From contig WJJJ01000007.1 in NCBI GenBank assembly GCA_014729775.1, positions 30,302 through 94,301 on the forward strand: a stretch of DNA of 64,000 bases. The letters run 5' to 3'. The translations under genes and the position numbers were made by a program. The first letter of the stretch is position 1; each line of letters begins with the position of its first letter. A model generated the notes under the pieces. That model did no database searches. It was not told the DNA's origin and saw nothing but the letters and a program-made list of their open reading frames with translations. The DNA is from Candidatus Omnitrophota bacterium. Lineage in GTDB: Bacteria; Omnitrophota; Gorgyraeia; Duberdicusellales; 4484-171. Shown piece by piece: positions 3,034 through 44,762 of this stretch.

Positions 3034-3052
3034 ACGGAAAGGAGAAACAGAG

Positions 3053-22031: not shown

Positions 22032-22088
22032 AAGGTGTTGCGTTGTTTCATCTCTCCCCGTAGAATAATATCGGGGGGAGAAAGGGTT

Positions 22089-24498: not shown

Positions 24499-24508
24499 TG
24501 TATTAGTA

Positions 24509-24835: not shown

Positions 24836-24922
24836 CTCAATTAAAGGATACCATACCCTGCCCCCCGATGTCAATAAAATCGCCGATGGCGAAAAACCAT
24901 TGAAAATAAAGGAGAATACGTT

Positions 24923-26761
24923 ATGATGCGCCGAGTTTTCCAGCGCTCCGTGCTTACTCTGATCGTGGTTGTGGTGACAATGGGGACGTTTCTTTTTATT
25001 TATAATACCTATATGTTGGATCATTCTCTCTTTAATCTGAAGGTTTCGCTCAAACATCTGGCTACCGTGGAAAATCCCAGGGAAATGGAGGAAATCCGGC
25101 AAATCCTGGACGTTGTATTGGTCCAGGAAATTGCCCGGGATTCGTCCGACTTTTTAGCGGCGGCAAAACTGGAATTTTCCGGTCAGATTGCGGGGCGGAT
25201 GAAGCAATATCAGCAGATTCAGGATATCCGGTTTCTCTTGGGGGATATCGTGGAACAACGGGAGGAGCGACGCAATCCTTTTTTTGCTCTGCTGGACAGC
25301 ATTTTGATGAAACTCTTCCCCCATGTGCGGCAGGACCAGCCGCAGAAGATACGCGCAATGATCAGCGAAATGGAAAAGAAAATTCCCCTTTACGACGGAA
25401 TTAAGCTGCAGGCGCATTTAATCCGTCTGGCACAGATGAATATGCGTCTTCGGGAGTGGCCTGTCGCATTGGAGTTGTTGCAGCGGGCGGCTTCAGCCGG
25501 GCCGGAAAGTAAGGAGGGCCGTATCGCGAAGCTATATGTGGGAATCGTATATAAATTTACCGGAGAGTATGAGCGTGCCCGGAAAGTATTCAGCGAGCTT
25601 CGTTCGGTGTTAGAGAAAGATCTGAAAAAATACGCAATATATCAGGAAGCCCAAATCTTGTATGCAGAAGGGCGAAAGGGACAGGCCTTGCAGAAGTTAG
25701 AAGAGTTCTTTGATGATTCGCCCGGAGAAGAATTCCATCAATTCTCGCAGTTCCGGGCGGCATACGAGTATCTATACACCATACACGACCACCAGAAGGC
25801 GTATCAGTCGTTTCAAAAACTGCATGAATATGCACCCCAAAGCAAGTATGACGAATATGCGGTTACCTATCTCTATCCCCGGAATGCGGAGCCGTATGTA
25901 GAAGAAGGAGCAATTTTGTTGGATGAAGGGTATAATCTGGTGCGGTTGGCACATGAAAAAGAGGCACGCGAACGATATCAGGGTGCATTGAACCTGTTCC
26001 ACCAGGCGGTAAAAATTTGTCCGCCGGAAACCAATGATACCGTGGTGTCGATTATCGCCCGCAATTATCGGGAAACCGGATTCAAACTGGTCGAACAAGG
26101 ATATTTGTCTCAACAGGCGAACCAGAAAGCGGAAGCGACGTTGTTTTTTTCCGATGCGATCGAGAAATTTGATCTTGCAACGCAATTCTTCGACCGCGAA
26201 GCGTTAGCATACAGCGGGAAAGGACTGACGTTATTGTTTCTCGGGAAGCCGCAGGAAGCGCTGGATGCCGCGCGGGAAGCCGTCCGTCTCAATCCCGAGA
26301 ATGAAGAAACACTGGCTCATTTGGGGTATGTGTATTATCGGGTGGGAATGCTTGACGAAGCGATCGATGTGTATCGAAAATCGATGTTGGTATTACGAGA
26401 TTCTCCGCTATTGCATTATAATCTGGGGACAATGTTGGTTAAAAAAGGCAACCTTGTGGGAGCGATCGAAAATTTCAAACAGGCGATTGATGCTGATCCG
26501 AAATATTCGTACGCATATAATAACCTAGGATACATTTTGTGGGTAAAGGGCGCCTATCAGGAGGCGCAGACAAATTTGGAGCGAGCCGTGAGTTTGAGCC
26601 CCGATTATGTGGATGCCAGGTATAATCTCGGAGTCTTGTTTTTTACCATCGGAAAGTACGAACAGGCCCAGGAGCAGTTCCAAGTGATCAACCGTTTGCA
26701 TCCGGGGTTCAAAAAAAGCCAACAGTTTCTGAGAGCGATTGAAAAGAGAGCTGCACAATAA
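24923..26761 (+). CDS. TPR-repeat protein with N-terminal membrane anchor
   Basis: RBS aaggag 7 nt before ATG. An N-terminal TM (LTLIVVVVTMGTFLFIY) is followed by multiple TPR-like repeats (YNLGTMLVKKGNLVGAIENFKQAIDADPKYSYAYNNLGYI...). Confidence 0.8.
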   Translation: MMRRVFQRSVLTLIVVVVTMGTFLFIYNTYMLDHSLFNLKVSLKHLATVENPREMEEIRQILDVVLVQEIARDSSDFLAAAKLEFSGQIAGRMKQYQQIQDIRFLLGDIVEQREERRNPFFALLDSILMKLFPHVRQDQPQKIRAMISEMEKKIPLYDGIKLQAHLIRLAQMNMRLREWPVALELLQRAASAGPESKEGRIAKLYVGIVYKFTGEYERARKVFSELRSVLEKDLKKYAIYQEAQILYAEGRKGQALQKLEEFFDDSPGEEFHQFSQFRAAYEYLYTIHDHQKAYQSFQKLHEYAPQSKYDEYAVTYLYPRNAEPYVEEGAILLDEGYNLVRLAHEKEARERYQGALNLFHQAVKICPPETNDTVVSIIARNYRETGFKLVEQGYLSQQANQKAEATLFFSDAIEKFDLATQFFDREALAYSGKGLTLLFLGKPQEALDAAREAVRLNPENEETLAHLGYVYYRVGMLDEAIDVYRKSMLVLRDSPLLHYNLGTMLVKKGNLVGAIENFKQAIDADPKYSYAYNNLGYILWVKGAYQEAQTNLERAVSLSPDYVDARYNLGVLFFTIGKYEQAQEQFQVINRLHPGFKKSQQFLRAIEKRAAQ

Positions 26762-26762
26762 A

Positions 26763-26791
26763 TTGACAGCAGCATGAAAATATACTAAACT
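26763..26791 (+). promoter_or_regulatory. Putative sigma70-type promoter (TTGACA-17-TAAACT) giving a near-leaderless PilZ mRNA
   Basis: TTGACA at 26763-26768 and TAAACT at 26786-26791 with a 17-nt spacer. The predicted TSS is ~3-4 nt before ATG 26802. Confidence 0.45.
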
Positions 26792-26801
26792 TATCGTTGA
26801 G

Positions 26802-27377
26802 ATGCTGAAATCATTCAAGAAACATTTCTTCCGCAAGAAAGGCCGTGACCGGAGAAAATATGTCCGGTTGCGTGCGCATCATTTGCTGAAGTATAAAATT
26901 CTTTCTCCCCAAGAACATCTGACCTTTGTCCGCGATATCAGCGGCGGCGGACTCCTCTTTTTCTCGAGAGAGGATATTCCTGTGGGGAGTGTAGTGGAAC
27001 TTGCCGTTAATTTTCCCGCATCTCCCTTGCCGATTGAAGGGGTAGCCAAGGTGATCCGGACCCGGCATCTTAAAAAGATGGGCGGCTACGAGATCGCAGT
27101 CGAATTTCTCGAGCTGGACGAAGAAAACCGGGAACGGATTCAACGGCAAATAGCGTGTGTATATGAAAAAAAAGAACAAAGAAAGGGGGAGCGAATGGGC
27201 AGAGTAGCGAAAATATTCCTGGGACTCGCGATTGTCGGCGCGCTTTTCGGGACGGCAACGCGATTCTTTGATGTGAGTGTCCCGGTTGCCCCGCTCAGTT
27301 GGGTTATGTTGACCAATATGTTTTTGCTGTTCTCTATCGCGGTCACTTTGTTGGCAATTGCTCGGAAGATCAAATAG
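26802..27377 (+). CDS. PilZ-domain c-di-GMP receptor with C-terminal two-TM anchor
   Basis: Canonical PilZ motifs RKYVRLR (RxxxR) and DISGGG (DxSxGG), followed by two hydrophobic helices at the C-terminus. Confidence 0.8.
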   Translation: MLKSFKKHFFRKKGRDRRKYVRLRAHHLLKYKILSPQEHLTFVRDISGGGLLFFSREDIPVGSVVELAVNFPASPLPIEGVAKVIRTRHLKKMGGYEIAVEFLELDEENRERIQRQIACVYEKKEQRKGERMGRVAKIFLGLAIVGALFGTATRFFDVSVPVAPLSWVMLTNMFLLFSIAVTLLAIARKIK

Positions 27378-27418
27378 GTTCTTTTGAGGATATACGGGGC
27401 AGACGGAATTTTATTCGT

Positions 27419-28747
27419 ATGGGCAGGTGGATTACCACAGGAATATGCATGGTTGCGTGTGCTGTCCTTCCCGCAGCGGGATGGGGGGAAGTGACGAGGG
27501 GAGACCTTATCGACGGATATCTTAAATATTATCAGCTGGAAGAAAAAGAACGGGAAGAAAAGGAACGGCAGGAAGAGCTCCGGCGGCAAAAGGAAGAGGC
27601 TTTGATGCGGGAGCGGGAAGCCCGGCGGGATAAAAGCGAGCAACGTGCGAGAAAAATGAAAAAAGTGCTTGAGAGAGTAAAAGAGGATCTTTTGTTTGTC
27701 GCGGAACTCGAGAGTATTTATAGCGATAACGTATTTAAAACCAGCGAAGACGAAGAATCAGATTTCGTCACTTCTCTCACCCTGGGATTGAGCTACGAAC
27801 CAGAAATTGCATGGAGGAAGGGGCATACTTCGGTAAAATTCGATCTGGAAGGCGGTCCGAACATCACCATTACGGATAATGACGAGCTGAACGCGAACCG
27901 GTTCCTTGCCGCCGGTGCGGTCCAGCATGTCCGGGGGAAATACGGTGTCGGTATTGAAGGAGGCGCGGAACGGGATTTCTCTACGGCGAGCGATTTTACC
28001 CTTACGGGAGAAAAAAAGCTCGTGGAATTCTGGCGGTATCGGTACGGAGTGGAGCTGTTCGCCGACTGGGCATATCTCCCTTCCTCGCTTCAGTACACGC
28101 ACAAAACAACCGAACACGACGGAGAGTTTTCTGCGGCGGATTTAGACGAGGACGTCATTGAATTGACGACGAAAGTGAACGTTTTCCCCAAGACCGGAAT
28201 TAAATTTGACTATCAATATGGTTCTGACGAATATCCGAACCGCGGAAATAAAGACGGTACGTATCATTCGTTTCAACTCGGGCTGTCCGGAAAGATTTCG
28301 CCGAAGATCAAAGGGGATATCCTTGGAGGCATCAAGCAGAGAGAAATCGATGACGGCAGCGATGTCGAAGAAACTACGACGACGGTGGACCTTGTGTATG
28401 ATATCTCCGAACATCTGAGCGCCGCCTTCGAAGCAAGCCGGGATGTCTCCGCGACGGCGGTCATCGGAGAATCTTGGAGCAAAGACTGGGAGATCATTCT
28501 GGGGCTGGAATACCGGCCGCCGTTCAACCGAAGGTTAACCATGTTCGCCGGAGGGGAATATAAGAGTTCAGAGTATTCTTCCGCCCGGGAAGACGAATAT
28601 CTTGAGCTGTCTTTGCGGTCACGGCTCGCGTTGAATCAATGGCTTTCCTGTGAAGGTGCATATACGTTCGAAGACAGGACCTCGAACACTGCCCTGGCCG
28701 AATACACGCAAAACGAAATTACGCTGTCACTCACCGCGGAGTTTTAA
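27419..28747 (+). CDS. Putative outer-membrane beta-barrel protein with N-terminal charged coiled-coil region
   Basis: Signal peptide (MGRWITTGICMVACAVLPAAG), a K/E/R-rich low-complexity stretch, then alternating amphipathic beta-strand pattern. The C-terminus ...ITLSLTAEF ends in Phe, the OMP signature. Confidence 0.6.
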   Translation: MGRWITTGICMVACAVLPAAGWGEVTRGDLIDGYLKYYQLEEKEREEKERQEELRRQKEEALMREREARRDKSEQRARKMKKVLERVKEDLLFVAELESIYSDNVFKTSEDEESDFVTSLTLGLSYEPEIAWRKGHTSVKFDLEGGPNITITDNDELNANRFLAAGAVQHVRGKYGVGIEGGAERDFSTASDFTLTGEKKLVEFWRYRYGVELFADWAYLPSSLQYTHKTTEHDGEFSAADLDEDVIELTTKVNVFPKTGIKFDYQYGSDEYPNRGNKDGTYHSFQLGLSGKISPKIKGDILGGIKQREIDDGSDVEETTTTVDLVYDISEHLSAAFEASRDVSATAVIGESWSKDWEIILGLEYRPPFNRRLTMFAGGEYKSSEYSSAREDEYLELSLRSRLALNQWLSCEGAYTFEDRTSNTALAEYTQNEITLSLTAEF

Positions 28748-30088
28748 ATGAAGATGCGAACAAAAATCATAGGTGTGCTTCTCGTTTGCTTCCCGCTGGC
28801 TGTTTCCGCACAACAGGAGGAGGAGAACATTGCCGCAGGGGATATTCTCCATATTACCGTATACGGGGAGCCGGGGCTTGATCAAAAGGTCCAGGTGTCT
28901 GGTACGGGGGATGTCGAATTCGTTCCTCTCGGACAGGTTCCCGTGGCCGGGCTCTCTCCGGTCGGGGCGGGAGAGAAAATCGAACGGGAACTGAAAAATG
29001 AGTTTTATTTGGATGCGGAAGTAAGCGTGATCCGGAACCGGTCCGCCGGGGAGTCGACGCAGGAGCCTCTTCCTTATTTTTCCGGTGAGGATTCCGGAAT
29101 TCCCTCTGCGGAAGACGATTTGTTTTACCGGGTTGGTCCGTACGATACAATTGAGATATCCGTTTACGGAGAGCCGGATTTAAGTAAAACCGTCAAAGTT
29201 TCCGAGGTAGGAAATATCCGTTTTCCGCTGCTGGGAGACGTGCAAGTCGAAGGACTGACTGCTGAAGAAATCGCCAGAAAAATTGAAGAATTGCTTGAGG
29301 ACGAATATTTAGTGAATCCACAGGTGAGTGTGATGATCGAGGAATACGGAAAAGTCTATGTGTTCGGCGCGGTGAATCAGCCGGGGGAATACGAGTTAAA
29401 AGGGCCTCTTACGCTCGTTGATATCCTCGTGCTAGCCGGCGGGGCCCAAGAAAACGCCAATCTTTCAAAAGTAAAAGTGGTGCGAAGGACCGGAGGCGAC
29501 CGGGGGTACGTGGTGGACGTAGACGATGTGGGCAACCGTTTCTACCTGAAACCCTTAGATAAGGTGATTGTGGAAGAATACGGGGAGATATATATCGTTG
29601 GCGCCGTCGAGAATCCTGGAGCTTATAATCTCGAAACGAGCGACTTGACGCCGTTGGATGCAATCATATTTCTGGCCGGAGGAGCTGCGGAAAATGCGAA
29701 CCTTACCGCGGTGACCGTGATCCGGTCGGCCGAAGATGGGAAAGAAGAGATCGTCGTTGACACTTCCCGGCCCGATCAGGAGTTTTATCTTCAGGAAGGC
29801 GACCGGGTGGTGGTAACGCTGTACGAGGATGTTTCGGTGTTTGGTGAAGTGCGGGAACCGGGTAATTACCCGTACAAAAAGGGGATAACGGTGATTGATG
29901 CCATTAGCCAGGCTGGCGGATTTACCGAGGTCGCGAGTAAAAACGGCGTACGAGTTATTCGGCAGCAGGGAGGGGAAAAGAAAATTATCAAAGTGCCTGT
30001 CGGATATATTTTAAAAACCGGAGATAAAGAGAGAGACATAGAGCTCCAGGAGGGCGATGCGGTAGTCGTCCCGGAATCGTGGTTTTGA
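28748..30088 (+). CDS. wza: Polysaccharide export protein (Wza/GumB/EpsA-like; Poly_export + SLBB domains)
   Basis: Signal peptide and repeated SLBB motifs (VYVFGAVNQPGEYELKGPLTLVDILVLAGG; IYIVGAVENPGAYNL...LDAIIFLAGG). Confidence 0.85.
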   Translation: MKMRTKIIGVLLVCFPLAVSAQQEEENIAAGDILHITVYGEPGLDQKVQVSGTGDVEFVPLGQVPVAGLSPVGAGEKIERELKNEFYLDAEVSVIRNRSAGESTQEPLPYFSGEDSGIPSAEDDLFYRVGPYDTIEISVYGEPDLSKTVKVSEVGNIRFPLLGDVQVEGLTAEEIARKIEELLEDEYLVNPQVSVMIEEYGKVYVFGAVNQPGEYELKGPLTLVDILVLAGGAQENANLSKVKVVRRTGGDRGYVVDVDDVGNRFYLKPLDKVIVEEYGEIYIVGAVENPGAYNLETSDLTPLDAIIFLAGGAAENANLTAVTVIRSAEDGKEEIVVDTSRPDQEFYLQEGDRVVVTLYEDVSVFGEVREPGNYPYKKGITVIDAISQAGGFTEVASKNGVRVIRQQGGEKKIIKVPVGYILKTGDKERDIELQEGDAVVVPESWF

Positions 30089-30094
30089 GGAACG

Positions 30095-31933
30095 ATGATA
30101 CCTTCACCGGAAGTTAAAGAACTGACGCTCAAGGATTACGTCGACATATTGCTGCGGCGGGTGTGGATACTTATGCTTTTTTTGGTCGTTATCCCCTCGA
30201 TCGTCGCAATCCGCGATCTGCGCATGGAGAAAGTGTATGAAGTAGAGACGAAGATCCTGTTAAAAAGCGAGATGCCGCAGATTTCCGGTAAAGAAGGGTT
30301 ATTATACCGTCAGGGAATGCCTGCGAAAGAGGACCAGGTTAATCTGCTTCAATCCCGGGCGCTTGCCGAGCGAGTGATCAAAACCTTGAATTTATCAAGC
30401 GAAGAAGAGTTTTCCGGAGCTTCCGATCCGGCGAGGTCTTTGCTTGAGAGGGTGACCGTAGAACAGGAGGACCAGCGCCGAAGCAATGTGGTATGGCTGC
30501 GGGTGGAGGGGAGTGATCCTCTGAAAATTACTAATATCGCCAATACCTGGGCCCAAGAGTTCATCGAACTGGATGTCGAACAAAGGATTTCTACGGCAAA
30601 ATACGGGGTAGCTTGGCTGAAGGAGCAGCTCGACCAAACACTCCAGAATCTTCAGGCGGCCGAAAAGAATCTCAATGCGTTTATTAAGAAAAACAAGATC
30701 GTGGCCATCCCTGACGTGGGAGAGCAGAAAGAGACTTTGATCGAACGGTTGAAAGAGCAAAAAGTTGATCTCGAAAAAGAATTGTTCGAGATGTCGAAAA
30801 AATATAAACTGAATCATCCCGATATGCTCGCCCTTCGTTCTCAGCTGGAGGCCGTCGAGAAATCTTTGGCAAAAGAAAAAAAGGCGGTGTTCGAATTGCA
30901 GGAGAAATCGCTCGAATACAGGATCCTTAAGCGGAATGTCGCTGCGCATAAATCGTTGTATGACGATTTTCTAAGGCGCATCAATGAACTTGAAGTGACC
31001 AAAGAGATGGTCAATTCGAACATCATGGTCGTTGAAGAAGCGCATATCCCTTCGGTTCCGATCAGGCCCCGGTTTGCCAGCGACATGGTCAAGGCGATTC
31101 TCATAAGTTTGGCGCTTGGCGCCGGGCTGTGCTATTTTCTCGAATACACCGATACTTCGCTCAAGACTTCGGAAGACGTCGAATTCTACACCCGGCTGCC
31201 ATTTCTCGGCTATGTACCTTCGGCAAAAAAAGGAGGGAAACGGGGAGATCCCAGTGTGCTCATCTCTTCTGCCGAGCCGTATTCTCAGGTGGCCGAAGCA
31301 TTAAGGAATCTGCGCGTATCTTTGATTTTTTCCTTTCCGGAGGATCATCCTTTGCGGTCGGTCATGGTGACGAGTGCCGTTCCCCGAGAAGGGAAAAGCT
31401 TTATCGCCGCCAATCTTGCGGTGATTTTTGCTCAGGCGAACGAAGAAACACTCTTGATCGAGACCGACATGCGCAAGGGGAAGCTTTCAAAGATATTTGA
31501 GATTGACGCAAAACACGGGCTCAGCAGTGTGTTAGCCGGACTTTGCCCCCTTGAAGATGCGGTGTCGCCTACTTCCATTCCCCATCTTTCCGTGATGCTT
31601 GCCGGGCCGTACACTCCGAATCCCGCGGAATTGTTGAGCTCGCATAAACTTGTCGAAATTATGGAAGAAGCAAAAAAGAAATATAAGCGAATCGTAGTGG
31701 ACGCGCCGCCGGTATTGGGGGTTGCCGATACGGTATTGGTCGGCGATAAATGCGACGGTGTTGTGTTCGTGGTGAAAACCGCCAGTACTTCCCTGAAGCT
31801 TGTAGAAGAGGCAAAAAAAATGATCACCGATAAAATGAAGGTGATCGGGGCGACATTGAATAATGTCGAAATGGAACGCGACCGGTATTACTACTACCAC
31901 TACTATTCTTATGCACCCGAGAAAAAAGGTTGA
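30095..31933 (+). CDS. wzc: Polysaccharide co-polymerase / BY-kinase (Wzc/EpsB-like tyrosine autokinase)
   Basis: N-terminal TM plus periplasmic coiled-coil (Wzz/GNVR-like), a second TM, a cytoplasmic P-loop ATPase (VTSAVPREGKSFIAANLA; VVDAPPVLGVADT), and the terminal Tyr cluster RDRYYYYHYYSY. Confidence 0.9.
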   Translation: MIPSPEVKELTLKDYVDILLRRVWILMLFLVVIPSIVAIRDLRMEKVYEVETKILLKSEMPQISGKEGLLYRQGMPAKEDQVNLLQSRALAERVIKTLNLSSEEEFSGASDPARSLLERVTVEQEDQRRSNVVWLRVEGSDPLKITNIANTWAQEFIELDVEQRISTAKYGVAWLKEQLDQTLQNLQAAEKNLNAFIKKNKIVAIPDVGEQKETLIERLKEQKVDLEKELFEMSKKYKLNHPDMLALRSQLEAVEKSLAKEKKAVFELQEKSLEYRILKRNVAAHKSLYDDFLRRINELEVTKEMVNSNIMVVEEAHIPSVPIRPRFASDMVKAILISLALGAGLCYFLEYTDTSLKTSEDVEFYTRLPFLGYVPSAKKGGKRGDPSVLISSAEPYSQVAEALRNLRVSLIFSFPEDHPLRSVMVTSAVPREGKSFIAANLAVIFAQANEETLLIETDMRKGKLSKIFEIDAKHGLSSVLAGLCPLEDAVSPTSIPHLSVMLAGPYTPNPAELLSSHKLVEIMEEAKKKYKRIVVDAPPVLGVADTVLVGDKCDGVVFVVKTASTSLKLVEEAKKMITDKMKVIGATLNNVEMERDRYYYYHYYSYAPEKKG

Positions 31934-33231
31934 TGAGAAGAAACGGATCAGAGATTTTCTTTGAGGGTGTGATTTGGTTCCTTATCTTTTTCCCGCCTCT
32001 TTTCTCCGGGGGGCTTCCCTTTCTGCCCAGGGTAATCCTTTTCACCGTAATTTTTAGTTTAGTCCCGCTCGTATTGTTGCGCGCCGCAGTGCGGTCTGAG
32101 TGGAGTGTTTGTTTTCCCCGAGAAATTTGGATATTGGGGGGTTTTTTTGCGGTGTTGGTGTTCCAGCTCATTCCTTTACCTGAGGGAATGCTTGGATTTT
32201 TTTCTCCGGCAACGGCGGCTATTTACCGGACCTATGCAGCCGAAGTTTCCCCGCGGGTATTCAGCATAAGCATTTATCCGTATGTGACTCTTCTTGAACT
32301 GGTGTATTGGGCCGGGTATGCGGGGCTTTTCCTGGTGGCGGTCAATTTGTTCAATACGCGCAGACGTATGATGCGTGTGGTGTACGTGATGATTCTTTGG
32401 GCGTTTGTGCTCGGAGCGTACGGAGTGATTGAAAAGTATATCCTTGGGTGGAGTGCGGGGAGATTAACGTTCAGCACATTCGGGAATAAGAATCACTTTG
32501 CCGGGTACATGGTGCTTATCTCGCCATTGGCATTTTCATTTGCATTTTACGAAAAAGATCGGGCAAAAAAATTGGTGCTTGGGTTTCTGGGCGGACTGTT
32601 ATCCCTGATGGTATTTTTATCGTTTTCCCGGGCAGGGACGATCGCGCTTCTTGGCGCACTGGGTTTTATGGGGCTGTTGGTATGGCAGCAGTCCAAAACA
32701 GCCAAAGCAGTGGGCGGGGTGGTGGCTGCGGTTTTGCTGGTCGCGGGGTTGCTGTCGCTGGCCGGTATCGATCAATTTATTCAGCGTTTTTCGTCCCTTC
32801 CTTCCGGGTTATACACCCGAACGATGCTGTTCCAGGATGCCTTAGAAATTATCGGAGACTTTCCGCTTTTCGGAACGGGTGAAGGAACTTTCCGCTATAT
32901 TTATCCGATGTATAAGGATATTATTACTACGAGGTTTACTTACCATCTTCTGAATGATCATCTGGAATTGCTCTTGGAAACGGGTCTCGCGGGTGCCTGT
33001 GCGTATTTTGGGTTTTTGAGTGCGGTATTCGTCCGAATCGTCCGGAAGCTGTCCGAACGGAAAGATCCTTTTGCGAAGTATCTCGTGATCGGCGGCCTGA
33101 GCGGAACCGCGGGGCTTCTGTTCCATAGTTTTTTTGAATTCAATTTTTTTGTGCCGGCGGTGGCCTGTATGTTTTGGCTGATTCTGGGGATTACTTATAA
33201 AGGAGTGCATACGAGGTTCGCGAGGCAATGA
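31933..33231 (+). CDS. O-antigen ligase / polymerase (Wzy_C) family integral membrane protein (second copy)
   Basis: A >=10-TM protein with the Wzy_C-like loop (LSFSRAGTIALLGALGF...LFGTGEGTF). The TGATG junction overlaps the wzc stop. Confidence 0.75.
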   Translation: MRRNGSEIFFEGVIWFLIFFPPLFSGGLPFLPRVILFTVIFSLVPLVLLRAAVRSEWSVCFPREIWILGGFFAVLVFQLIPLPEGMLGFFSPATAAIYRTYAAEVSPRVFSISIYPYVTLLELVYWAGYAGLFLVAVNLFNTRRRMMRVVYVMILWAFVLGAYGVIEKYILGWSAGRLTFSTFGNKNHFAGYMVLISPLAFSFAFYEKDRAKKLVLGFLGGLLSLMVFLSFSRAGTIALLGALGFMGLLVWQQSKTAKAVGGVVAAVLLVAGLLSLAGIDQFIQRFSSLPSGLYTRTMLFQDALEIIGDFPLFGTGEGTFRYIYPMYKDIITTRFTYHLLNDHLELLLETGLAGACAYFGFLSAVFVRIVRKLSERKDPFAKYLVIGGLSGTAGLLFHSFFEFNFFVPAVACMFWLILGITYKGVHTRFARQ

Positions 33232-37902: not shown

Positions 37903-40269
37903 ATGAAACGAAGAGTCGACAAGACGCTGTGGTTTGCGGTCTGCGGGATTGTGCTTCTGCAGGGATGCCGCCAATTCGGATTACTCGACAAGATCACCCA
38001 CGCCTATCGAACGGTCACTTCCCGGTACGAAGCCCGTCTCGAACGGAATCCCCGGAATGATTCTCTCCGTTACGAACTTGCACAGTTCTATTACGCTTTT
38101 CGTGATTACGACCGTGTCAAAACGCTTTTGCGGGGATTCGCGAAGGAGGACGCGCAGCGGCTGCTCGCGAACGCGCACGTCCGTACCGGGGAACATACTT
38201 GCGCGCTGGCGCTGTATGAGCGGTCTGGTGCCGGGAGCGACGACGAAACTTTATACTTGTACGCGCGCGCCTGCGAGGAAAAAAATTTATTCTCCCGCGC
38301 GCTGGCGCTGTATGAGAAAACCGGAGGAAAGTTCCGCGCAAAAGCCCGGGAACGGATTCTGAGGATCAGGTCTAAAACGGAAGATCATCCGCCGGAGAAC
38401 GTGATCGATCTTCTGGAACGCGAAAAAGAGTTTATTGACCGGTACCGAGAGCATCCGGTGATCGTTTTGTATTCCGATGAATCGATGACCGTTTCCTCCG
38501 ACGGCCGTTCCACGTTCATGATTCACCGGATTCAAAAGATCATGAACGAAAAGGGGAAAAACGAAGCCGAAATACGGATTGGATACGATTCCACGTACGA
38601 AACCGTTGAGTTAGAGTACGCGCGGACCGTTACTCCGGAGGGACGGGTGATTTATGCCGGAGAGGAACACCGGAGAGATACCGCCAAATATGCGCATTAT
38701 CCGTTGTACAGCAATGCCCGCGCGCTGATCGTGTCAATGCCCGCGGTAGAAATCGGCGCGGTGATCGAATACAAGGTGAAAATACGCGCCTCAAAACTTA
38801 TCGCCGGCGGAAATTTTTCTTTGTTTTACCGTCTCTATGAAGCGTTCCCGGTCGCGCAGGCGCGGTTTACTCTTTCTGTGCCTCCGGCGTTCTCTGTTTT
38901 TTTTGACCCGTGTCACGAACCGGCCGCCGCCGGCCGGTCCCTTCTTCCAGAAAAAACTCCTCAGCCGGGCGGGGTGCGCTATCGCTGGGAGTACCGTTGT
39001 CTTCCCCCCCTCCTGCCGGAAGAACGGATGCCACCGCTGGCGGACGTGGTTCCGGCAGTGCATATATCGACTTTTTCTTCCTGGGAACAGATATACCAAT
39101 GGTGGAGCGGACTGATAGAAGGGAAGTTCTCGCTTACTCCCGAAATGGAGCGGCTGGTGAGCGAACGCGCTCCGGCCACCCTCCCTCCCCGCGAGCGGGT
39201 GAAAGCTCTGTATGAGTTCTGCGCCCGGCAGATACGGTATGTTGGCGTTGAATACGGGGAGAGCGGATATGAACCTCACGCCGCTGCGGAAGTGTTTGAG
39301 AACCGGTACGGTGACTGTAAAGATAAAGCGGTGCTGCTGACGGCACTGCTGCGCGAAGCGGGATTCGAAGCGGCGCCGGTGCTTATCCCCACAAGAGAAC
39401 AGTACCCTCTCAACCGAGAATTTCCCTCGGTAGATTTTAACCACGCGATCGCGCTCGTCCGGATAGACGGGAAGGAGATCTATATGGATCCTACCGCGTC
39501 CACCGTTTCCTGGGGCGATCTGCCCCTGGATGATCAAAACCGCAACGTGTTGATTTGCGCCCGGGATTCCTATAGGTTTGGAAAAACCCCGCTCAGAAGT
39601 GAAAACCGCATGAGGTATAGAACGGAAATCATGTTCACTCCCGAGGAGCAGGCGCGATTTACCCGTGCCCTGACCGCGACCGGAAATTTCGCCGCCTACC
39701 AGCGGTTTTATCTCGAATACACCCATCCTCAGAAAGTCGAGGAGGACATCCGGAAACAAATATTGGAACTGAGTCCGTTCGCTACGCTGACCGGATATAC
39801 CGTCGAAAATAAAGAAAATTTGTCAAAGCCCCCCGTCATAAGGTATTCTTTTTATGCGCCGGCCGTATTGCAAAGTGCGGGACGGATGAGAATTCTCTCT
39901 CTCCCCGACGATATTAAAATCGACACGGGATTCGCGGGGAAAGAAGCGCGGCGGTTCCCGGTGGAGTTTAAAGGATTGTTCCGGAAATTTTCGGAAGTGT
40001 CAGTTTCTCTTTCCGACGGGATGAAAGTTCTGTCTGCGCCGAAAAACGTCCGGGTAGACACGCCGTGGTTCGTGTTTGCCTCCGAAACTGAACGGAGCGG
40101 AAAAGTGTTCCGTATTGTCCGGGAGTTTCGCGTCAAAACGACGCATGTACCGGTGGACCGGTATAAGGAATTCAAGCAGCGCCTCGCGGAAGTGTATGCG
40201 TTCCTTCGCGCCGGGATTATTTTGGAAAAAACGGAAAAAGATGGCGGGGAGAAAAAAGAAAAATTTTGA
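37903..40269 (+). CDS. Lipoprotein with TPR repeats, DUF3857-like region and transglutaminase-like cysteine-protease core
   Basis: Lipobox LLQGC. N-terminal TPR-like repeats. Transglutaminase core motif YGDCKDKAVLLTALLREAGFEAAPVLI (Cys nucleophile), with downstream FNHAIALV...YMDPT (His/Asp). Confidence 0.75.
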   Translation: MKRRVDKTLWFAVCGIVLLQGCRQFGLLDKITHAYRTVTSRYEARLERNPRNDSLRYELAQFYYAFRDYDRVKTLLRGFAKEDAQRLLANAHVRTGEHTCALALYERSGAGSDDETLYLYARACEEKNLFSRALALYEKTGGKFRAKARERILRIRSKTEDHPPENVIDLLEREKEFIDRYREHPVIVLYSDESMTVSSDGRSTFMIHRIQKIMNEKGKNEAEIRIGYDSTYETVELEYARTVTPEGRVIYAGEEHRRDTAKYAHYPLYSNARALIVSMPAVEIGAVIEYKVKIRASKLIAGGNFSLFYRLYEAFPVAQARFTLSVPPAFSVFFDPCHEPAAAGRSLLPEKTPQPGGVRYRWEYRCLPPLLPEERMPPLADVVPAVHISTFSSWEQIYQWWSGLIEGKFSLTPEMERLVSERAPATLPPRERVKALYEFCARQIRYVGVEYGESGYEPHAAAEVFENRYGDCKDKAVLLTALLREAGFEAAPVLIPTREQYPLNREFPSVDFNHAIALVRIDGKEIYMDPTASTVSWGDLPLDDQNRNVLICARDSYRFGKTPLRSENRMRYRTEIMFTPEEQARFTRALTATGNFAAYQRFYLEYTHPQKVEEDIRKQILELSPFATLTGYTVENKENLSKPPVIRYSFYAPAVLQSAGRMRILSLPDDIKIDTGFAGKEARRFPVEFKGLFRKFSEVSVSLSDGMKVLSAPKNVRVDTPWFVFASETERSGKVFRIVREFRVKTTHVPVDRYKEFKQRLAEVYAFLRAGIILEKTEKDGGEKKEKF

Positions 40270-40633
40270 ACTGCGTTTTTACGAGGAACTCGCGGAAAAA
40301 ATTCCGCGGTTCCCCCACGTGCTTGTCTGTTTGGGCGAACTTTACACGCGGCAGGGATTTTACAGGGAAGGTCTTCGCGTAGATAAGCGGCTGGTGCGTC
40401 TCCGTCCGCGGGATCCGACGGTGCGCTACAATCTTGCCTGTTCCCATGCGCTGATGGGAAACATACCGGAATCATTTACGGAGCTGCGCCGGGCGGTGTT
40501 GTGCGGATATGAGGATTTCTCCCTGTTGCGGGAGGATCCCGATCTCGAGCGCCTCCGCGCATATCCGCCCTTCCGCGAATATATTACCCGGGCGTCGGTG
40601 TTGCTGGAAAGAGAAAAAAAGGGAAGCGATTGA
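40241..40633 (+). CDS. Small TPR-like repeat protein
   Basis: Internal ATG at 40241 (MAGRKKKNFELRFYEELAEKIP...). Helical TPR-like repeats (LGELYTRQGFYREGLRVDKRLVRLRPRDPTVRYNLACSHALMGN). It overlaps the upstream stop. Confidence 0.5.
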   Translation: MAGRKKKNFELRFYEELAEKIPRFPHVLVCLGELYTRQGFYREGLRVDKRLVRLRPRDPTVRYNLACSHALMGNIPESFTELRRAVLCGYEDFSLLREDPDLERLRAYPPFREYITRASVLLEREKKGSD

Positions 40634-42651
40634 TGAGCGAGAAGCGAAAATATATCCGTATCGCAGGGGTGCTGCCGGTTGAATTTTACGTGATCGACGA
40701 GTTCGGCAAGCGGATCACGCCCTGGCTCCAGGGGTTTACTCAGGATATCGGCAGAGGCGGCGTCTGTTTGTGCGTGAACGATCTATGGTGGGGGTTCTGG
40801 GATCGATTCCATCCCAGGGGCGTGAAACTGGTAGTGAAGATCGATCTTCCGTTTCGGACGGAGCCTCTGTACGCGCACGCGAAAGTCGCCTGGTCCGCGC
40901 AGCGTTCGCTCGCGGATTTCGTGCAGTACCGGTTTGGAGTGGAGTTTACCGGCGCCGCCGTCAAGAACGCGCAGGCACTGTTCCGTTACGCGGTCATAAA
41001 AAAGACGATGCCCGCGGCAGCGGGTATTCTTCTTTTCGCTCTCGTAGCCATCGCGGGATTTTCTTTTGTGCAGATGCGCATGGCTGCCCAGAAAAACAGA
41101 GAGATGGTGGGTGCCTACGCGCGGACAATAGACCGCCTTTCGGCTCTGAAGGATTCCATGGAAGAGGCGGAGGAAAGCGGCGTGTATTTTGCCCGCCGCC
41201 GTCAGGCGGTCGAAGAGAGTATCGGGGTATTCGAGCAGGAATTGGAACGTCTGCAAAACGTATATCTGGAGATAAGACGGGATCGTGCGCCCACGGCACG
41301 CGAGGAACAAACGCGGCTGGAGAAGCAAATACACACGCTTTCGACACGATTGGACGCGATGCAGCGCGAGAACCGTTTTTTAAAGCAAAAACAGCGCCGG
41401 CGGGCTTTATTATCGGAAGAGCTGAGAACAGAGGCGCGAGAATTGCGTCAGCAAAAGCGGCAGTCTTCTTCACGTATTATCGATGGGCTTTACCGCTGGA
41501 TCGCCAACCGGCAGAATTTAGTGAGCGGACTGGTGCTCAGTTACGAAGGGGACCGGAATCTTGACCGGGTATGTTTTACCTATGACCAGTCGCTGGCGGC
41601 GATCGTTTTTCTGCTGTTCGACGAGCAGGAGAAAGCGAAAAAAATCATGGATTTTTATTTGGGCCAAGTCCGGAAAGAGGGGAAGATTTACAACGCGTAT
41701 CATACCCGGGGACATGTGTACGAATATGTCAGGCATTCCGGACCGTATGCGTGGATTGGGATCGCGGCGCTGACCTACGTAAAAAAAACAGGGGACCGCA
41801 CCTATTTGCCGGTTGCCGAACATGTGGCGGAGTTCCTGTGGGCGATGATGGATGAAGAGGGCGGAATCAAAGGGGGGCCGCAGGTTGACTGGTATTCGAC
41901 CGAACATAACCTCGACGCTTACGCGTTTTTTCGGATGTACCGCGCGATTGCTCCGCAGGCGCGCTACCGTGGCGCAGCCGACAAGGTGAAAACCTGGATG
42001 AGCACCTACGCTTACAGCTCATACGGTCCGCCGGTAAAGCGCGGCAAGGGGGATTCTACGATCGCGACCGATACCTACTCCTGGTCGCTCACCGCGATCG
42101 GTCCGGCGCAGCTGCGGTCGCTGCAGATGAATCCGGAACGGATTATGGAGTTCGCGGTGAAGAACTGTGAAGTGGAAACGACCTTTTCTTTTGGCGGACG
42201 TCAGCACCGGGTGCGCGGGTTTGATTTTGCGAAATTCCGCAATTCGGCGCGCGGCGGGGTGATTTCCTGCGAGTGGACCGCGCAGATGATTCTCGCCTTT
42301 GAAATCCTCGCCGATTACTATCGGGAGCGCAGCGAAAGAAAATACCGCTACTATTATGAAAAAGCTGAAAGGTATCTCACCGAACTGCAGAAGATGATTA
42401 TTACTTCTCTGTCCCGTGTGGGAAGAGAAGAACCCTGTTTCCCTTACGCTTCGGCGGCAGCGGTTGATACGGGTCACGGGTGGCGGACGCCCAAGGGAGA
42501 CCGTACCGGGTCCCTGGCGGCTACCGCGTATTTTTTAATCGCATACCACGGTTATAATCCCCTTACCGGCGAATATTTGGGCGTGTCGTTTCTCACTCAA
42601 GACACGAACGAGATTCCGACTGTTCGCGAGGACCTGGGCGATGCCCGATGA
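40633..42651 (+). CDS. PilZ domain - TM - coiled coil - large C-terminal (alpha/alpha)-barrel glycoside-hydrolase-like domain fusion protein
   Basis: N-terminal PilZ motifs KRKYIRI (RxxxR) and DIGRGG (DxSxGG). One TM (AAAGILLFALVAIAGFSFV). A ~150-aa coiled coil (LERLQNVYLEIRRDR...). Then a ~380-aa soluble domain with aromatic-rich repeats (YDQSLAAIVFLLFDEQ...AWIGIAALTYVKK...) suggesting an alpha/alpha toroid; the fold is unverified. Confidence 0.7.
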   Translation: MSEKRKYIRIAGVLPVEFYVIDEFGKRITPWLQGFTQDIGRGGVCLCVNDLWWGFWDRFHPRGVKLVVKIDLPFRTEPLYAHAKVAWSAQRSLADFVQYRFGVEFTGAAVKNAQALFRYAVIKKTMPAAAGILLFALVAIAGFSFVQMRMAAQKNREMVGAYARTIDRLSALKDSMEEAEESGVYFARRRQAVEESIGVFEQELERLQNVYLEIRRDRAPTAREEQTRLEKQIHTLSTRLDAMQRENRFLKQKQRRRALLSEELRTEARELRQQKRQSSSRIIDGLYRWIANRQNLVSGLVLSYEGDRNLDRVCFTYDQSLAAIVFLLFDEQEKAKKIMDFYLGQVRKEGKIYNAYHTRGHVYEYVRHSGPYAWIGIAALTYVKKTGDRTYLPVAEHVAEFLWAMMDEEGGIKGGPQVDWYSTEHNLDAYAFFRMYRAIAPQARYRGAADKVKTWMSTYAYSSYGPPVKRGKGDSTIATDTYSWSLTAIGPAQLRSLQMNPERIMEFAVKNCEVETTFSFGGRQHRVRGFDFAKFRNSARGGVISCEWTAQMILAFEILADYYRERSERKYRYYYEKAERYLTELQKMIITSLSRVGREEPCFPYASAAAVDTGHGWRTPKGDRTGSLAATAYFLIAYHGYNPLTGEYLGVSFLTQDTNEIPTVREDLGDAR

Positions 42652-42770: not shown

Positions 42771-43589
42771 ATGAAAGAACGAGCAGTTGAAATTCGCCGG
42801 ATCACCCAGAAGAGGCCGGATATCTTTTTGCTTACCGTCCGTTCTGCCGCGCTGGCAAATCAGGCGCGGCCCGGTCAGTTCCTGCACGTCAAGACGGACG
42901 AGTGCACCACGATCTTACGACGCCCGCTCAGTATTCATCGACGGGAAAAACAGGACCTCTCGCTACTGGTAAAAGTAAGAGGAAGAGGGACCCGCGCGCT
43001 TCTGCGGCGCGCGCCGGGCGAACGCCTGAACGTCATCGGCCCGCTGGGTAACGGGTTTACCCTTTCTCCGTTTCCCGATGGGGGGACCACGATGCTCATT
43101 GCCGGAGGGATCGGGGTGGCGCCGCTGGTGTTTCTCGCCCAGCGGCTCACGGGGACCGCGAAAAGACCGAGTACGGGCCGAAAAATTGCCCTGATCGGAG
43201 CGCGCACCCGGGGAGAGGTGCTCTGCGCGCCGGAGTTTCGCCGGAGGGGATTTACCGTGAAAAAGGCGACCGAAGACGGCAGCGCCGGCCGAAAGGGAAG
43301 TGTCATTGAGCTGGCCCGCGACCTGCTCGCCGCTCGCGGCGATGCCCGGCCGTTACGGATTTTCGCCTGCGGTCCGGAACAGATGTTTTTTCGCCTCCGC
43401 GCCGCGATAAATGAATTATGTCCCGAGCCCGAACGGGTTCGCTGTCAGGTTTCTTTTGAACAATTTATGGGCTGCGGGGTCGGCGTGTGCTGTGCCTGCG
43501 CCATTCCCACGCGGCAGGGATACAAAAAGGTGTGTAAAGACGGACCGGTATTTTCCCTTCACGAATTGAAGGAACGCGGGACGGAATGA
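42771..43589 (+). CDS. pyrK: Dihydroorotate dehydrogenase electron-transfer subunit
   Basis: FNR-like FAD/NAD fold (RPLSIH...; GGIGVAPL) and a C-terminal 2Fe-2S cysteine cluster (CQVSFEQFMGCGVGVCCACA). Confidence 0.85.
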   Translation: MKERAVEIRRITQKRPDIFLLTVRSAALANQARPGQFLHVKTDECTTILRRPLSIHRREKQDLSLLVKVRGRGTRALLRRAPGERLNVIGPLGNGFTLSPFPDGGTTMLIAGGIGVAPLVFLAQRLTGTAKRPSTGRKIALIGARTRGEVLCAPEFRRRGFTVKKATEDGSAGRKGSVIELARDLLAARGDARPLRIFACGPEQMFFRLRAAINELCPEPERVRCQVSFEQFMGCGVGVCCACAIPTRQGYKKVCKDGPVFSLHELKERGTE

Positions 43590-44415
43590 GTACGCGGAGC
43601 GCTTTTGGTGCTTCACGGAAACCGTGCGGGATCAAGCACTGGCCGCACGAAGACCGGCCGCGCGAGAAACTTCTGCGGCGCAAAGAACACCGCTTGACCG
43701 ACGCGGAATTGCTGGCGGTGCTTCTGGGTACCGGGGTACCGGGAAAGAACGCGGTGGATTTGGCCCGGGAGGTCTTACGGACGTTCAAGACCTTTCGAAA
43801 CATGGCGCATTCGGCGCCGTCCCGGTGGAAACAGCTGAAAGGGCTTGGTCCGGCAAAGCTGGCCCATATCCGTGCCGCGTTGGAAATCGGCCGTCGGTTC
43901 CAGGAGGAGCCGTCTTCCCGCCGCCGCTGCATCCGTTCTTCCGCGGACGTGGCGAGGCGGTTCATGGCCAGGCTGAGAGATTTAAAAAAGGAAGTTTTTT
44001 CGTGGTGCTGGTGAATTCCCGCAATATGATTCTGTCGTGCGAAGAGGTGGGCCAGGGGACGGTGGATTGCGTGAGTCTGTTTTTGAGAGAGATCTTTCAG
44101 AAAGCATTCGAACAGTTCGCATCCGGCGTGCTGTGCGTGCATAATCATCCCTCCGGGGATCCGCATCCCAGCCGGCCGGACAGAGAATTCACCCGTCAGC
44201 TGAACCAGTGCGCGCAGGTGCTGCAGCTGCGATTTTTGGATCACGTGATTATCGGAGATAACACCTATTTCAGCTTTGCCGACGAAGGACTTCTTGTTCC
44301 GGATGCGGCGCAGCAGCGCGGCGCCGCGCCGCGCGCGGGATACCGTTCGCTTCGGCGGCGGTGCTCTCCGGTGCGGCCGGATCAGCTGCGAAAACGGAGG
44401 CGAGTATGTGGATAG
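43586..44415 (+). pseudogene. radC: radC (JAMM-motif DNA repair protein RadC family) interrupted by a 1-nt frameshift in an A6T6 homopolymer (or sequencing error)
   Basis: The N-terminal HhH part (EKLLRRKEHRLTDAELLAVLLGTG...) is in the frame of ORF 43586-44014. The JAMM part (FFVVLVNSRNMIL...LCVHNHPSGDPHPSRPD) is in the frame of ORF 43624-44415. The two frames meet at aaaaaaggaagtttttt (43983-43999), and one extra T would restore ...LRDLKKEVFFVVLVNS.... Confidence 0.6.
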
Positions 44416-44762
44416 GATATGTGACCGCGGGGCTTGCCGCGGGAATCGCGAGCGGTTTCTTCGGTATCGGCGGAGGTACGCTGCTCATTCCGGTGATGGT
44501 GTATTTGTTCGGTTTGACCCAGCATCAGGCCCAGGGAACGACGCTGGCGCTGATGGTTCCTCCGATCGGACTGCTCGCGGCCTGGCGGTATTACGTTGAA
44601 GGGAACGTGAATATTTCCATGGCCTTATGTATTTGCGCGGGGTTTTTCCTGGGAGGGCTCATCGGGGCCCATTACGTGCAGGAAGTGCCTGATCCGGTGT
44701 TAAAAAGAGTGTTCGGGGGATATTTATTAGTGGTTGCCGTAAAAATGATTATCGGGAAATGA
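44406..44762 (+). CDS. Half-size TauE/SafE (TSUP) family membrane protein (4 TM)
   Basis: RBS ggagg 5 nt before ATG 44406. The sequence GFFGIGGGTLLIPVMVYLFG...GTTLALMVPPIGLLAAW is one TSUP 4-TM repeat. Family members are usually ~250 aa with two repeats. Confidence 0.6.
   Translation: MWIGYVTAGLAAGIASGFFGIGGGTLLIPVMVYLFGLTQHQAQGTTLALMVPPIGLLAAWRYYVEGNVNISMALCICAGFFLGGLIGAHYVQEVPDPVLKRVFGGYLLVVAVKMIIGK

Follow-up and report, generated by a model that had tools for sequence, protein, structure and literature searches.

A PilZ domain joined through a single predicted transmembrane helix to an (alpha/alpha)6 glycosidase-like barrel in Omnitrophota

A gene in the window (the whole 64,000-nucleotide stretch of DNA analysed here) encodes a protein in which an N-terminal PilZ domain is followed by a single transmembrane helix, two long helices and a large (alpha/alpha)6 barrel with invariant carboxylates, and this fusion is conserved across the Omnitrophota. 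In the best reading of the data, to which we give only a little short of an even chance, binding of c-di-GMP in the cytoplasm controls a periplasmic carbohydrate-active enzyme.

Results

Gene, domain order and distribution

The open reading frame may start at TTG 40630 or ATG 40633 and ends at 42651 on the + strand; counted from the ATG, its product has 672 aa and matches, at 100% identity, a protein of equal length deposited from a Ca. Omnitrophica MAG. Its parts are:

40633..42651, + strand: whole gene, PilZ, transmembrane helix, probable helical hairpin and (alpha/alpha)6 barrel (open reading frame, 672 aa)
40639..40989, + strand: PilZ domain, aa 3-119 (PF07238 match; six-stranded beta-barrel 8-106 and the first part of the C-terminal helix)
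41014..41076, + strand: single transmembrane helix, about aa 128-148 (Kyte-Doolittle peak 2.44)
41077..41505, + strand: helical segment, predicted periplasmic, aa 149-291 (AF2 helices 149-215 and 220-291)
41278..41289, + strand: putative hairpin tip, aa 216-219 (between the two AF2 helices)
41506..42597, + strand: (alpha/alpha)6-barrel, glycosidase-like domain, aa 292-655 (confident model; family without a Pfam model)

The AF2 model of the full-length protein (pLDDT 87.5, pTM 0.81), together with the open reading frame, Pfam matches and hydropathy, bears out the domain order proposed in the original prediction, which was made from this sequence alone. More than 1000 full-length relatives were found, from ~400 species genomes, essentially all of them Omnitrophota, and their number and strong purifying conservation rule out a chance reading frame. 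PilZ was joined to the barrel in 75/75 checkable loci. Neither the domain nor the entire protein occurs a second time within the window. The searchable literature yielded no description of a PilZ-glycosidase fusion, in agreement with the earlier statement that this is not an established architecture.

Membrane helix, topology and helical segment

One hydrophobic peak was seen in 74/75 relatives (Kyte-Doolittle), and in the AF2 model helix 107-215 is unbroken, such that the transmembrane helix is continuous with the C-terminal helix of the PilZ domain. The lack of a signal peptide, the presence of one transmembrane helix only and the signal peptides found on stand-alone barrel paralogs make an N-in/C-out topology plausible. 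Since most of the paralogs bear such signals, the barrel family as a whole appears to work outside the cytoplasm. The barrel of the query protein has cysteines at positions 314, 512, 546 and 602.

The region between membrane and barrel had been described as a coiled-coil stalk. AF2 instead places two long helices of almost equal length here, and the corresponding segment in 171 relatives has length modes at 137 and 124 aa, with Pro and Gly enriched at its midpoint. These features indicate that the two helices probably form an antiparallel coiled-coil hairpin, which is likelier than a straight stalk. As a hairpin, the segment would leave the barrel close to the inner membrane.

An (alpha/alpha)6 barrel with invariant carboxylates

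The large toroidal C-terminal domain that had been proposed is confidently modelled as an (alpha/alpha)6 barrel, not as a TPR or HEAT solenoid, and it has strictly conserved carboxylates. Two methods gave as its best fold match MmpH, an enzyme for which experiments have tested the catalytic role of D47/D50 and E262. The conserved acidic residues are:

41584..41586, + strand: D318, where the first barrel helix begins (invariant in the family; 44/44 distant paralogs)
41902..41904, + strand: E424, motif W-Y-S-T-E-H-N-L-D (invariant in the family; 44/44 paralogs)
42052..42054, + strand: D474, in the same motif as D480 (41/44 distant paralogs)
42070..42072, + strand: D480, motif G-D-S-T-I-A-T-D-T (invariant in the family; 44/44 distant paralogs)
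42271..42273, + strand: E547, motif S-x-E-W-T-x-Q (invariant in the family; 43/44 paralogs)

In the AF2 model the four family-wide invariant residues (D318, E424, D480 and E547) are found at the N-terminal ends of alternate barrel helices, the usual active-site face; E424 opens helix 423-439 and E547 lies at the start of helix 546-563. Mapped onto MmpH and GH15 by helix order, not by superposition or residue-level alignment, E547 is a candidate general base equivalent to MmpH E262, D318 is a candidate counterpart of the MmpH acid D47/D50, and E424 may correspond to the general acid of GH15.

Gene neighbourhood

Two genes directly upstream accompany the PilZ-barrel gene:

37903..40269, + strand: lipoprotein of 788 aa with TPR, DUF3857 and transglutaminase-core regions, upstream partner (Pfam, synteny)
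40241..40633, + strand: small TPR protein of 130 aa with no export signal (weak, sub-threshold Pfam TPR matches)

The first of these had been noted as a transglutaminase-like lipoprotein, and it indeed has a lipoprotein-type N-terminus, Pfam matches to DUF3857 (2.2e-28) and Transglut_core (2.9e-10), and an intact triad (Cys472/His514/Asp529); a lipobox is present in most of 51 homologues. No functional data were found in the literature on DUF3857. The start of the small TPR gene overlaps the end of the lipoprotein gene and its stop overlaps the ATG of the PilZ gene as TGATG, so the three genes look translationally coupled. A scan of the operon for promoters and terminators singled out no site, the counts lying within ~1.5 sd of those expected from shuffling.

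The lipoprotein gene lies upstream of the PilZ-barrel gene in four long contigs from relatives and in most of the 61 loci whose upstream DNA extends for 3.2 kb or more (44 counted by distance window, ~52 by manual reading), and the small TPR gene is present in at least 38/71 loci and 3/4 long contigs. A divergent clade keeps the PilZ-barrel protein with no transglutaminase-like neighbour.

An EPS island is also encoded in the window (~17976-33231), and trimming of its product had been suggested as the role of the protein. Between the island and the PilZ reading frame lie ~7.4 kb without an evident polysaccharide role, in which genes for a TPR protein, RNase T, AsnC and an aminotransferase come first and the two partner genes after them. 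The four long contigs share a block of AsnC, aminotransferase, transglutaminase-like gene, (TPR) and PilZ gene; the 8-10 kb flanking it on each side contain no EPS genes, and no substrate-synthesis genes are conserved near the PilZ-barrel gene. Most of another 80 loci have this block too. On this synteny a functional link to the island, suggested by proximity in this window only, was rejected.

The same neighbourhood suggests a different arrangement, which we consider unlikely: a Lap-like inside-out module, in which the protein is mainly a c-di-GMP receptor whose barrel and hairpin bind, sequester or activate the lipoprotein as a putative cysteine protease, the barrel pocket being a binding site for glycan or protein and not a catalytic one. 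The LapD/LapG system offers a precedent for cytoplasmic c-di-GMP control of a periplasmic transglutaminase-like protease (PMC3032545, PMC3032553), a variant with another domain organisation has recently been described (PMC13090378), and here the lipoprotein with its intact triad is linked to the PilZ gene by the overlapping small TPR gene, in an arrangement conserved in the four long contigs and most further loci. Against this, the divergent clade retains the protein without the lipoprotein, which is itself no LapG-type BTLCP (PF06035 E = 0.13), and no LapA-like adhesin was seen nearby. The four carboxylates are also invariant among secreted paralogs from unrelated contexts, which suggests chemistry over partner docking.

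Family relationships of the barrel

The GH8, GH15, GH63 and GH127 families had been put forward for comparison, and by sequence the barrel falls outside all four as well as GH76. For the query protein, the barrel had no match in Pfam or NCBIfam. Matches of relatives to GH76, GH127 and GH88 were all sub-threshold, with no CAZy-type family reaching threshold; among 21 members, weak Pfam matches were to GH76 (16/21), C5-epim_C (8/21) and GH88 (3/21). Family and superfamily profiles run against the PDB did not reach MmpH or GH15, and weakly found GH76, AprG and BT_3782 only. Membership of GH76 was rejected: the helix-hairpin motif alone matches, and the GH76A dyad D136-D137 aligns to G370-P371. 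Most of the paralogs had no Pfam context, the exceptions being one subtilase fusion and weak GH88 or GH76 matches; paralogous copies of the barrel also occur in giant surface proteins of Omnitrophota, putatively predatory nanobacteria.

Under PilZ control the barrel might act as a carbohydrate-active enzyme other than a hydrolase: an epimerase or isomerase (AGE, C5-epimerase), a lyase or hydratase (GH88/GH105), a transglycosylase or a phosphorylase. The weak C5-epim_C and GH88 matches point in this direction, and AGE-type epimerases nearly equal the hydrolases in fold score. AGE-type catalysis, however, relies on conserved histidines, and none of the histidines here is kept throughout the superfamily (H425 is found in 25/44, H368 in 13/44 and H615 in 13/44 paralogs, positional equivalence being judged without superposition), where four carboxylates are conserved instead. 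As the best structural match is a hydrolase by both methods, we regard a non-hydrolase activity as quite improbable.

PilZ domain

PF07238 scored 22.1 bits on aa 3-119, just below its gathering score of 22.5; most full-length relatives carry a precomputed match to the same model, and a profile of the region weakly matched the PilZ protein YpfA (5vx6). In the AF2 model (pLDDT ~85-94) strands 8-21, 32-39, 43-49, 65-70, 79-92 and 97-106 make up a six-stranded beta-barrel, after which the C-terminal alpha-helix begins at 107. Two motifs can be located:

40645..40659, + strand: RxxxR c-di-GMP-binding motif, R5-K-Y-I-R9 (conservation of R5 and R9)
40744..40761, + strand: second PilZ motif, [D/N]hSxxG, here D38-I39-G40-R41-G42-G43 (Ser replaced by Gly)

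Both arginines of the RxxxR motif (defined in 10.1101/814665) are kept in 69/69 relatives possessing the N-terminus. In the second motif D/N38 (75/75), I39 (73/75) and G43 (75/75) are conserved, while position 40, the motif Ser, is Gly in 59, Ser in 10, Ala in 4 and Cys in 2 of the 75 relatives and Gly in the query protein. The domain had been called canonical. This description fits the intact RxxxR motif and the conserved D/N38 and G43, but not the Ser of the second motif. With the predicted binding motifs largely conserved, a PilZ domain that lacks c-di-GMP binding seems unlikely, and, judged by this pattern of conservation, the motifs are under selection. A HAMP-GGDEF protein is encoded within the same window.

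It is similarly improbable that the PilZ domain no longer senses c-di-GMP and is a mere anchor or protein-interaction module, perhaps for the TPR protein, with the enzyme constitutive or otherwise regulated: the loss of the motif Ser here and in most relatives, the sub-gathering Pfam score, the co-encoded signal-less TPR protein and the loss of binding in some PilZ domains known from the literature would all be compatible with this, but R5, R9, D/N38, the hydrophobic residue 39 and G43 are almost invariant at 45-55% overall identity, which is hard to explain without ligand binding, and PilZ domains within fusion proteins keep c-di-GMP binding according to a review of the domain.

Discussion

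If c-di-GMP does control a periplasmic carbohydrate-active enzyme through this protein, the following mechanism can be proposed. The protein would be a bitopic inner-membrane protein whose cytoplasmic N-terminal PilZ domain binds c-di-GMP. From the C-terminal helix of this domain, an element identified as the readout in the PilZ review, an unbroken path would lead through the single transmembrane helix into a periplasmic helical hairpin ~10 nm long. Ligand-driven repositioning or dimerisation of the PilZ domain might then alter the position, the oligomeric state or the active-site access of the barrel. The barrel itself would be a carbohydrate-active enzyme that depends on carboxylates. An inverting endo-glycosidase of the MmpH/GH15 structural type is the most probable form, with E547 as the candidate base and E424 and/or D318 as the candidate acid, and it would act on a glycan of the periplasm or envelope. 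Across much of the phylum the gene would be co-transcribed with those of the transglutaminase-fold lipoprotein and the small TPR protein, and this association points to remodelling of envelope glycoconjugates rather than to trimming of the nearby EPS-island product. For a periplasmic glycosidase under the direct control of a second messenger, via a single transmembrane helix, no precedent is known to us.

A more specific proposal, possible but distinctly tentative, is that the protein is a new type of inside-out device, core to the Omnitrophota, in which c-di-GMP read by PilZ directly switches a periplasmic (alpha/alpha)6 glycosidase-like enzyme, maybe acting with the transglutaminase-fold lipoprotein on envelope glycoconjugates. 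Known outputs of PilZ domains are cytoplasmic or membrane-embedded, and include synthases (BcsA, Alg44/Alg8), flagellar brakes and transcription factors; to our knowledge, LapD/LapG is the one route into the periplasm that has been well studied for c-di-GMP. A PilZ domain coupled by one transmembrane helix to a glycosidase-like enzyme would be a second, mechanistically different inside-out route and the first example of a glycosidase outside the cytoplasm that a nucleotide controls directly, and the barrel would represent a new family of (alpha/alpha)6 enzymes, marked by four invariant carboxylates and lacking a Pfam model. Because it is conserved in synteny across ~400 Omnitrophota species, the gene is a tractable entry to c-di-GMP signalling and envelope biology in a phylum that is uncultured and possibly predatory.

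Comparison with known systems

The closest fold, that of MmpH, a methylmannose-polysaccharide endo-alpha-(1->4)-mannosidase (PDB 7QSJ), shares 14% identity with the barrel and no sequence-level match; MmpH is actinobacterial, functions in intracellular polysaccharide recycling and has neither membrane anchor nor PilZ domain. Unlike the GH15 glucoamylases and glucodextranases (clan GH-L), the barrel has no PF00723 match and is without a starch-binding or N-domain. The GH76 alpha-1,6-mannanases are the sole family of solved structure that a sequence profile reached (E = 0.002) and the commonest weak Pfam match, but all scores are below gathering and the position of their Asp-Asp dyad is taken by Gly-Pro.

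Among c-di-GMP systems, the Bcs machinery uses the PilZ domain of BcsA to control a synthase, and BcsZ, a periplasmic GH8 cellulase, is a separate protein that is not known to be under direct c-di-GMP control; here PilZ and barrel are one polypeptide, with no linked synthase. Alg44, the alginate co-polymerase of Pseudomonas, shares with our protein an N-terminal cytoplasmic PilZ domain, a single transmembrane helix and a periplasmic domain, and its PilZ C-terminal helix has a part in dimerisation and signal transfer (PilZ review). The periplasmic part of Alg44, however, is HlyD/MFP-like and its partner is the GT2 synthase Alg8, whereas the present protein has a hairpin and an (alpha/alpha)6 barrel, no HlyD match and no synthase in its conserved neighbourhood. 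With LapD/LapG it has in common an inner-membrane c-di-GMP receptor (here putative) adjoining a gene for a periplasmic transglutaminase-fold, cysteine-protease-like protein. LapD consists of a LapD periplasmic domain, HAMP and a degenerate GGDEF-EAL in which EAL is the sensor, and LapG is a BTLCP (PF06035); here their places are taken by PilZ with a probable hairpin and an (alpha/alpha)6 barrel, and by a lipoprotein of the DUF3857/Transglut_core kind.

The PilZ-barrel gene is genuine and conserved in Omnitrophota

The gene encoding a PilZ domain, a transmembrane (TM) helix, two further helices and an (α/α)6 barrel lies directly downstream of two partner genes, as follows:

37903–40269, + strand, TPR/DUF3857/transglutaminase-core gene (the lipoprotein neighbour)
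40241–40633, + strand, small TPR gene (130 aa)
40630 (TTG) or 40633 (ATG) to 42651, + strand, PilZ-barrel open reading frame (ORF)

Counted from the ATG, the protein has 672 aa and matches a hypothetical protein from a Candidatus Omnitrophica MAG at 100% identity. It matched >1000 proteins at E ≤ 1e-3. The best 120 were nearly all full-length Omnitrophota proteins at 45–55% identity, and any name given to them was no more specific than 'PilZ domain-containing protein' or 'hypothetical protein'. These matches rule out a chance ORF; the gene is genuine and strongly conserved. A scan of GTDB species genomes yielded 406 loci with a relative, nearly all labelled Omnitrophota, the exceptions being a few auto-labelled 'Planctomycetia' and one short contig in a Methanosarcinales bin. 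This 5.2 kb contig (JAIWAR010000068.1, binned as 'Methanosarcinales archaeon') carries a transglutaminase-like gene and a PilZ-barrel gene of Omnitrophota type (60% identity) and was probably mis-binned; the bin is of note given that predation on Methanosaeta has been reported for one Omnitrophota species. When 80 loci were fetched, the PilZ N-terminus was joined to the barrel in all 75 with enough upstream DNA, and conservation of the architecture across the phylum is well supported.

PilZ domain and membrane topology

The Pfam profile PF07238 matched aa 3–119 with 22.1 bits, just missing its gathering score of 22.5, and most relatives carry a precomputed match to it. In an alignment of 75 relatives, R5 and R9 of the RxxxR motif were kept in all 69 sequences having the N-terminus, position 38 was D in 57 and N in 18, I39 was present in 73 and G43 in 75. 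In the refined motif, [D/N]hSxxG, Gly takes the place of Ser in the protein and in 59/75 relatives (Ser in 10/75). In the full-length AF2 model (pLDDT 87.5, pTM 0.81), aa 8–106 form six strands followed by a helix. Together, the near-threshold profile match, the arginines and this fold uphold the N-terminal PilZ domain of the original prediction, whose description as canonical holds for R5, R9, D/N38 and G43 but not for the motif Ser. A review of PilZ proteins reports that PilZ domains in fusions keep c-di-GMP binding and use the C-terminal helix as the readout element; with the motif conservation, this suggests that the domain binds c-di-GMP. Near the PilZ-barrel gene of a divergent Omnitrophota locus (L078), two small ORFs (3019–3384 and 12443–12865) begin like PilZ proteins, with RxxxR-type starts, which suggests several PilZ receptors per genome.

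A single hydrophobic segment was found at ~aa 128–148, and exactly one in 74/75 relatives, in agreement with the single TM helix predicted. AF2 models aa 107–215 as one uninterrupted helix, so the C-terminal PilZ helix would run on through the TM helix into the first periplasmic one; a break at 216–219 precedes the second periplasmic helix (220–291). Arms of almost equal length in the model, Pro/Gly enrichment at the midpoint of the helical segment in 171 relatives, and length modes of 137 and 124 aa in the same set, whose 13-aa step approximates one heptad fewer per arm, favour an antiparallel hairpin over a straight stalk of 20 nm. The long helices expected after the TM segment are thus borne out, but a hairpin appears likelier than the proposed stalk. 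Three points support an N-in/C-out topology with a periplasmic barrel: an N-terminal signal peptide is absent, the sole TM helix comes after a folded PilZ domain (hydropathy, AF2), and most stand-alone barrel paralogs start with signal peptides or lipoprotein signals, which indicates that this domain family functions outside the cytoplasm.

The barrel is a putative enzyme of an unclassified family

Residues ~292–655 of the protein itself had no sequence match in Pfam, NCBIfam or PDB. They folded confidently as an (α/α)6 barrel (pLDDT 88.6, pTM 0.90), the toroid anticipated by the original prediction, with the methylmannose-polysaccharide endo-α-(1→4)-mannosidase MmpH (PDB 7QSJ) as top match, in Foldseek too. 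The confident model and the Foldseek result rule out a TPR/HEAT solenoid.

With the barrel alone as query, 864 of 1.84 billion representative proteins were matched at E ≤ 1e-3, 97 of them at E ≤ 1e-30. Outside the PilZ context, the barrel occurs in stand-alone proteins of 370–500 aa, in multi-domain proteins, among them one joined to a subtilase (P0208, 889 aa), and in giants of up to 5959 aa. The largest (P0195, Omnitrophota) has six matching stretches, and further giants carry a paralogous barrel (P0182, P0204, P0214, P0242, P0258). A preprint on Omnitrophota giant genes predicted a GH76-like fold within a giant protein, with small pilZ genes close by; this fold may be the paralogous domain found here in giant proteins. 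On a fen Omnitrophota contig (L002/L003), a very large ORF without Pfam matches (>2474 aa, from 13555 and running off the locus) lies a few kb 3' of the PilZ-barrel gene, with a ParE/Phd toxin-antitoxin pair between.

Within the family, the barrel is much more conserved than the remainder of the protein, with many invariant polar and aromatic residues. Conserved acidic residues extend to 44 distant paralogs (30–38% identical): D318, E424 and D480 in 44/44, E547 in 43/44, D474 in 41/44 and D531 in 39/44. No histidine was generally conserved across these paralogs. In the AF2 model the conserved carboxylates all sit at the N-termini of alternate barrel helices, on the face that forms the active site in (α/α)6 enzymes. 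Mutagenesis of MmpH, which has been likened to inverting GH15 and GH125 enzymes, showed dependence on D47/D50 in the αA–αB loop and on the base E262 (PMC9883506). By helix order, D318 would correspond to MmpH D47/D50, E547 to E262 and W617 to W315, while E424 would take the place of the GH15 general acid.

Membership in a described GH family, GH127 included, did not hold up: Pfam matches in relatives were all sub-threshold (GH76 16/21, GH127 13/21, C5-epim_C 8/21), and the catalytic Asp-Asp of GH76 falls on G370-P371 in the sole profile-to-PDB alignment obtained. The domain is best described as an unclassified (α/α)6 family with a predicted carboxylate-rich pocket.

A transglutaminase-like lipoprotein, not the EPS island, accompanies the gene in most loci

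Of the 80 loci fetched, 61 had 3.2 kb or more of upstream DNA; in these the lipoprotein gene lay upstream in 44 by a script's distance window and in ~52 by reading of its table; the small TPR gene stood between the two in at least 38/71 loci, and AsnC and aminotransferase genes lie farther upstream in the closer clade. A lipobox in most of 51 neighbour homologues confirms the transglutaminase-like lipoprotein that had been proposed next to the gene, an assignment made from sequence; Cys472/His514/Asp529 are present in the copy from the window. The three genes run into one another in the window: the small TPR gene starts (40241) before the lipoprotein gene stops (40269), and its own stop shares TGATG with the PilZ-barrel start. 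In a divergent clade the transglutaminase gene is missing and unrelated housekeeping genes flank the PilZ-barrel gene.

The exopolysaccharide region upstream comprises:

17976–33231, + strand, EPS island (Wzx/Wzy-type, by gene content)
23194–24498, + strand, HAMP-GGDEF protein within the island (GGDEF match to profile positions 5–94 of 161)

The island holds two Wzy_C genes, GT4, GT2, an FAD oxidoreductase, a large TPR protein and exporter-type genes (Wza-like Poly_export/SLBB, Wzc-like Wzz/GNVR/AAA_31 and a BBP2 β-barrel porin). Its HAMP-GGDEF protein, the cyclase domain of which may be partial or degenerate, shows that the genome has genes for c-di-GMP signalling. The island is real, but the functional link drawn from its proximity is not supported, because most of the genes between it and the PilZ-barrel gene (TPR protein, RNase T, AsnC, aminotransferase, then the two partner genes) belong to a block kept elsewhere without EPS genes. 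Four long contigs (45–54% identity) had identical gene order and no EPS genes in the 8–10 kb shown on each side, and the island is not syntenic with the PilZ-barrel gene in relatives.

Downstream, a RadC-like gene (43586–44415, +) looks split over two reading frames, owing to a frameshift or a misassembly:

43586–44014, + strand, ORF with UPF0758 N-terminal domain
43624–44415, + strand, overlapping ORF with RadC JAB domain (aa 117–223, E = 1.3e-34)

A 133-aa ORF (44361–44762, +) has a match confined to the C-terminal half (profile positions 120–237) of the TauE/SafE sulfite-exporter family; the gene may be truncated or have a misplaced start. Each 2-kb bin of 1–64000 has positive GC skew, and almost all long gene-like ORFs are on the + strand, consistent with the entire window lying on the leading strand of one replichore.

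Proposed function and comparison with known systems

The best-supported reading, in which every functional step is inferred, is an inside-out device. Cytoplasmic PilZ would bind c-di-GMP, the continuous path from its C-terminal helix through the TM helix to the hairpin would relay this mechanically to the barrel, and the barrel, as a putative glycosidase-type enzyme, would act on a glycan of the periplasm or envelope; across much of the phylum the protein would be co-expressed with the transglutaminase-fold lipoprotein of the periplasm. In the main rival reading, the periplasmic part would control this lipoprotein, for which LapD/LapG offers a precedent by analogy; against this, one clade is without the lipoprotein neighbour, and paralogs in unrelated settings keep the barrel's carboxylates invariant. 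Further rivals are loss of ligand binding by the PilZ domain and non-hydrolytic barrel chemistry, of which the AGE-type epimerase version is disfavoured because a conserved His is missing.

No description of a PilZ-(α/α)6 fusion was found in the literature searched. What is known in the inside-out device is the PilZ receptor; what appears new is its extracytoplasmic output, a putative enzyme family as yet unclassified. The closest architecture is Alg44, which likewise has an N-terminal PilZ domain, one TM helix and a periplasmic domain, but differs in the nature of that domain and in having a synthase partner. The nearest folds to the barrel are MmpH and GH15 enzymes, and the nearest signalling logic is that of LapD/LapG.
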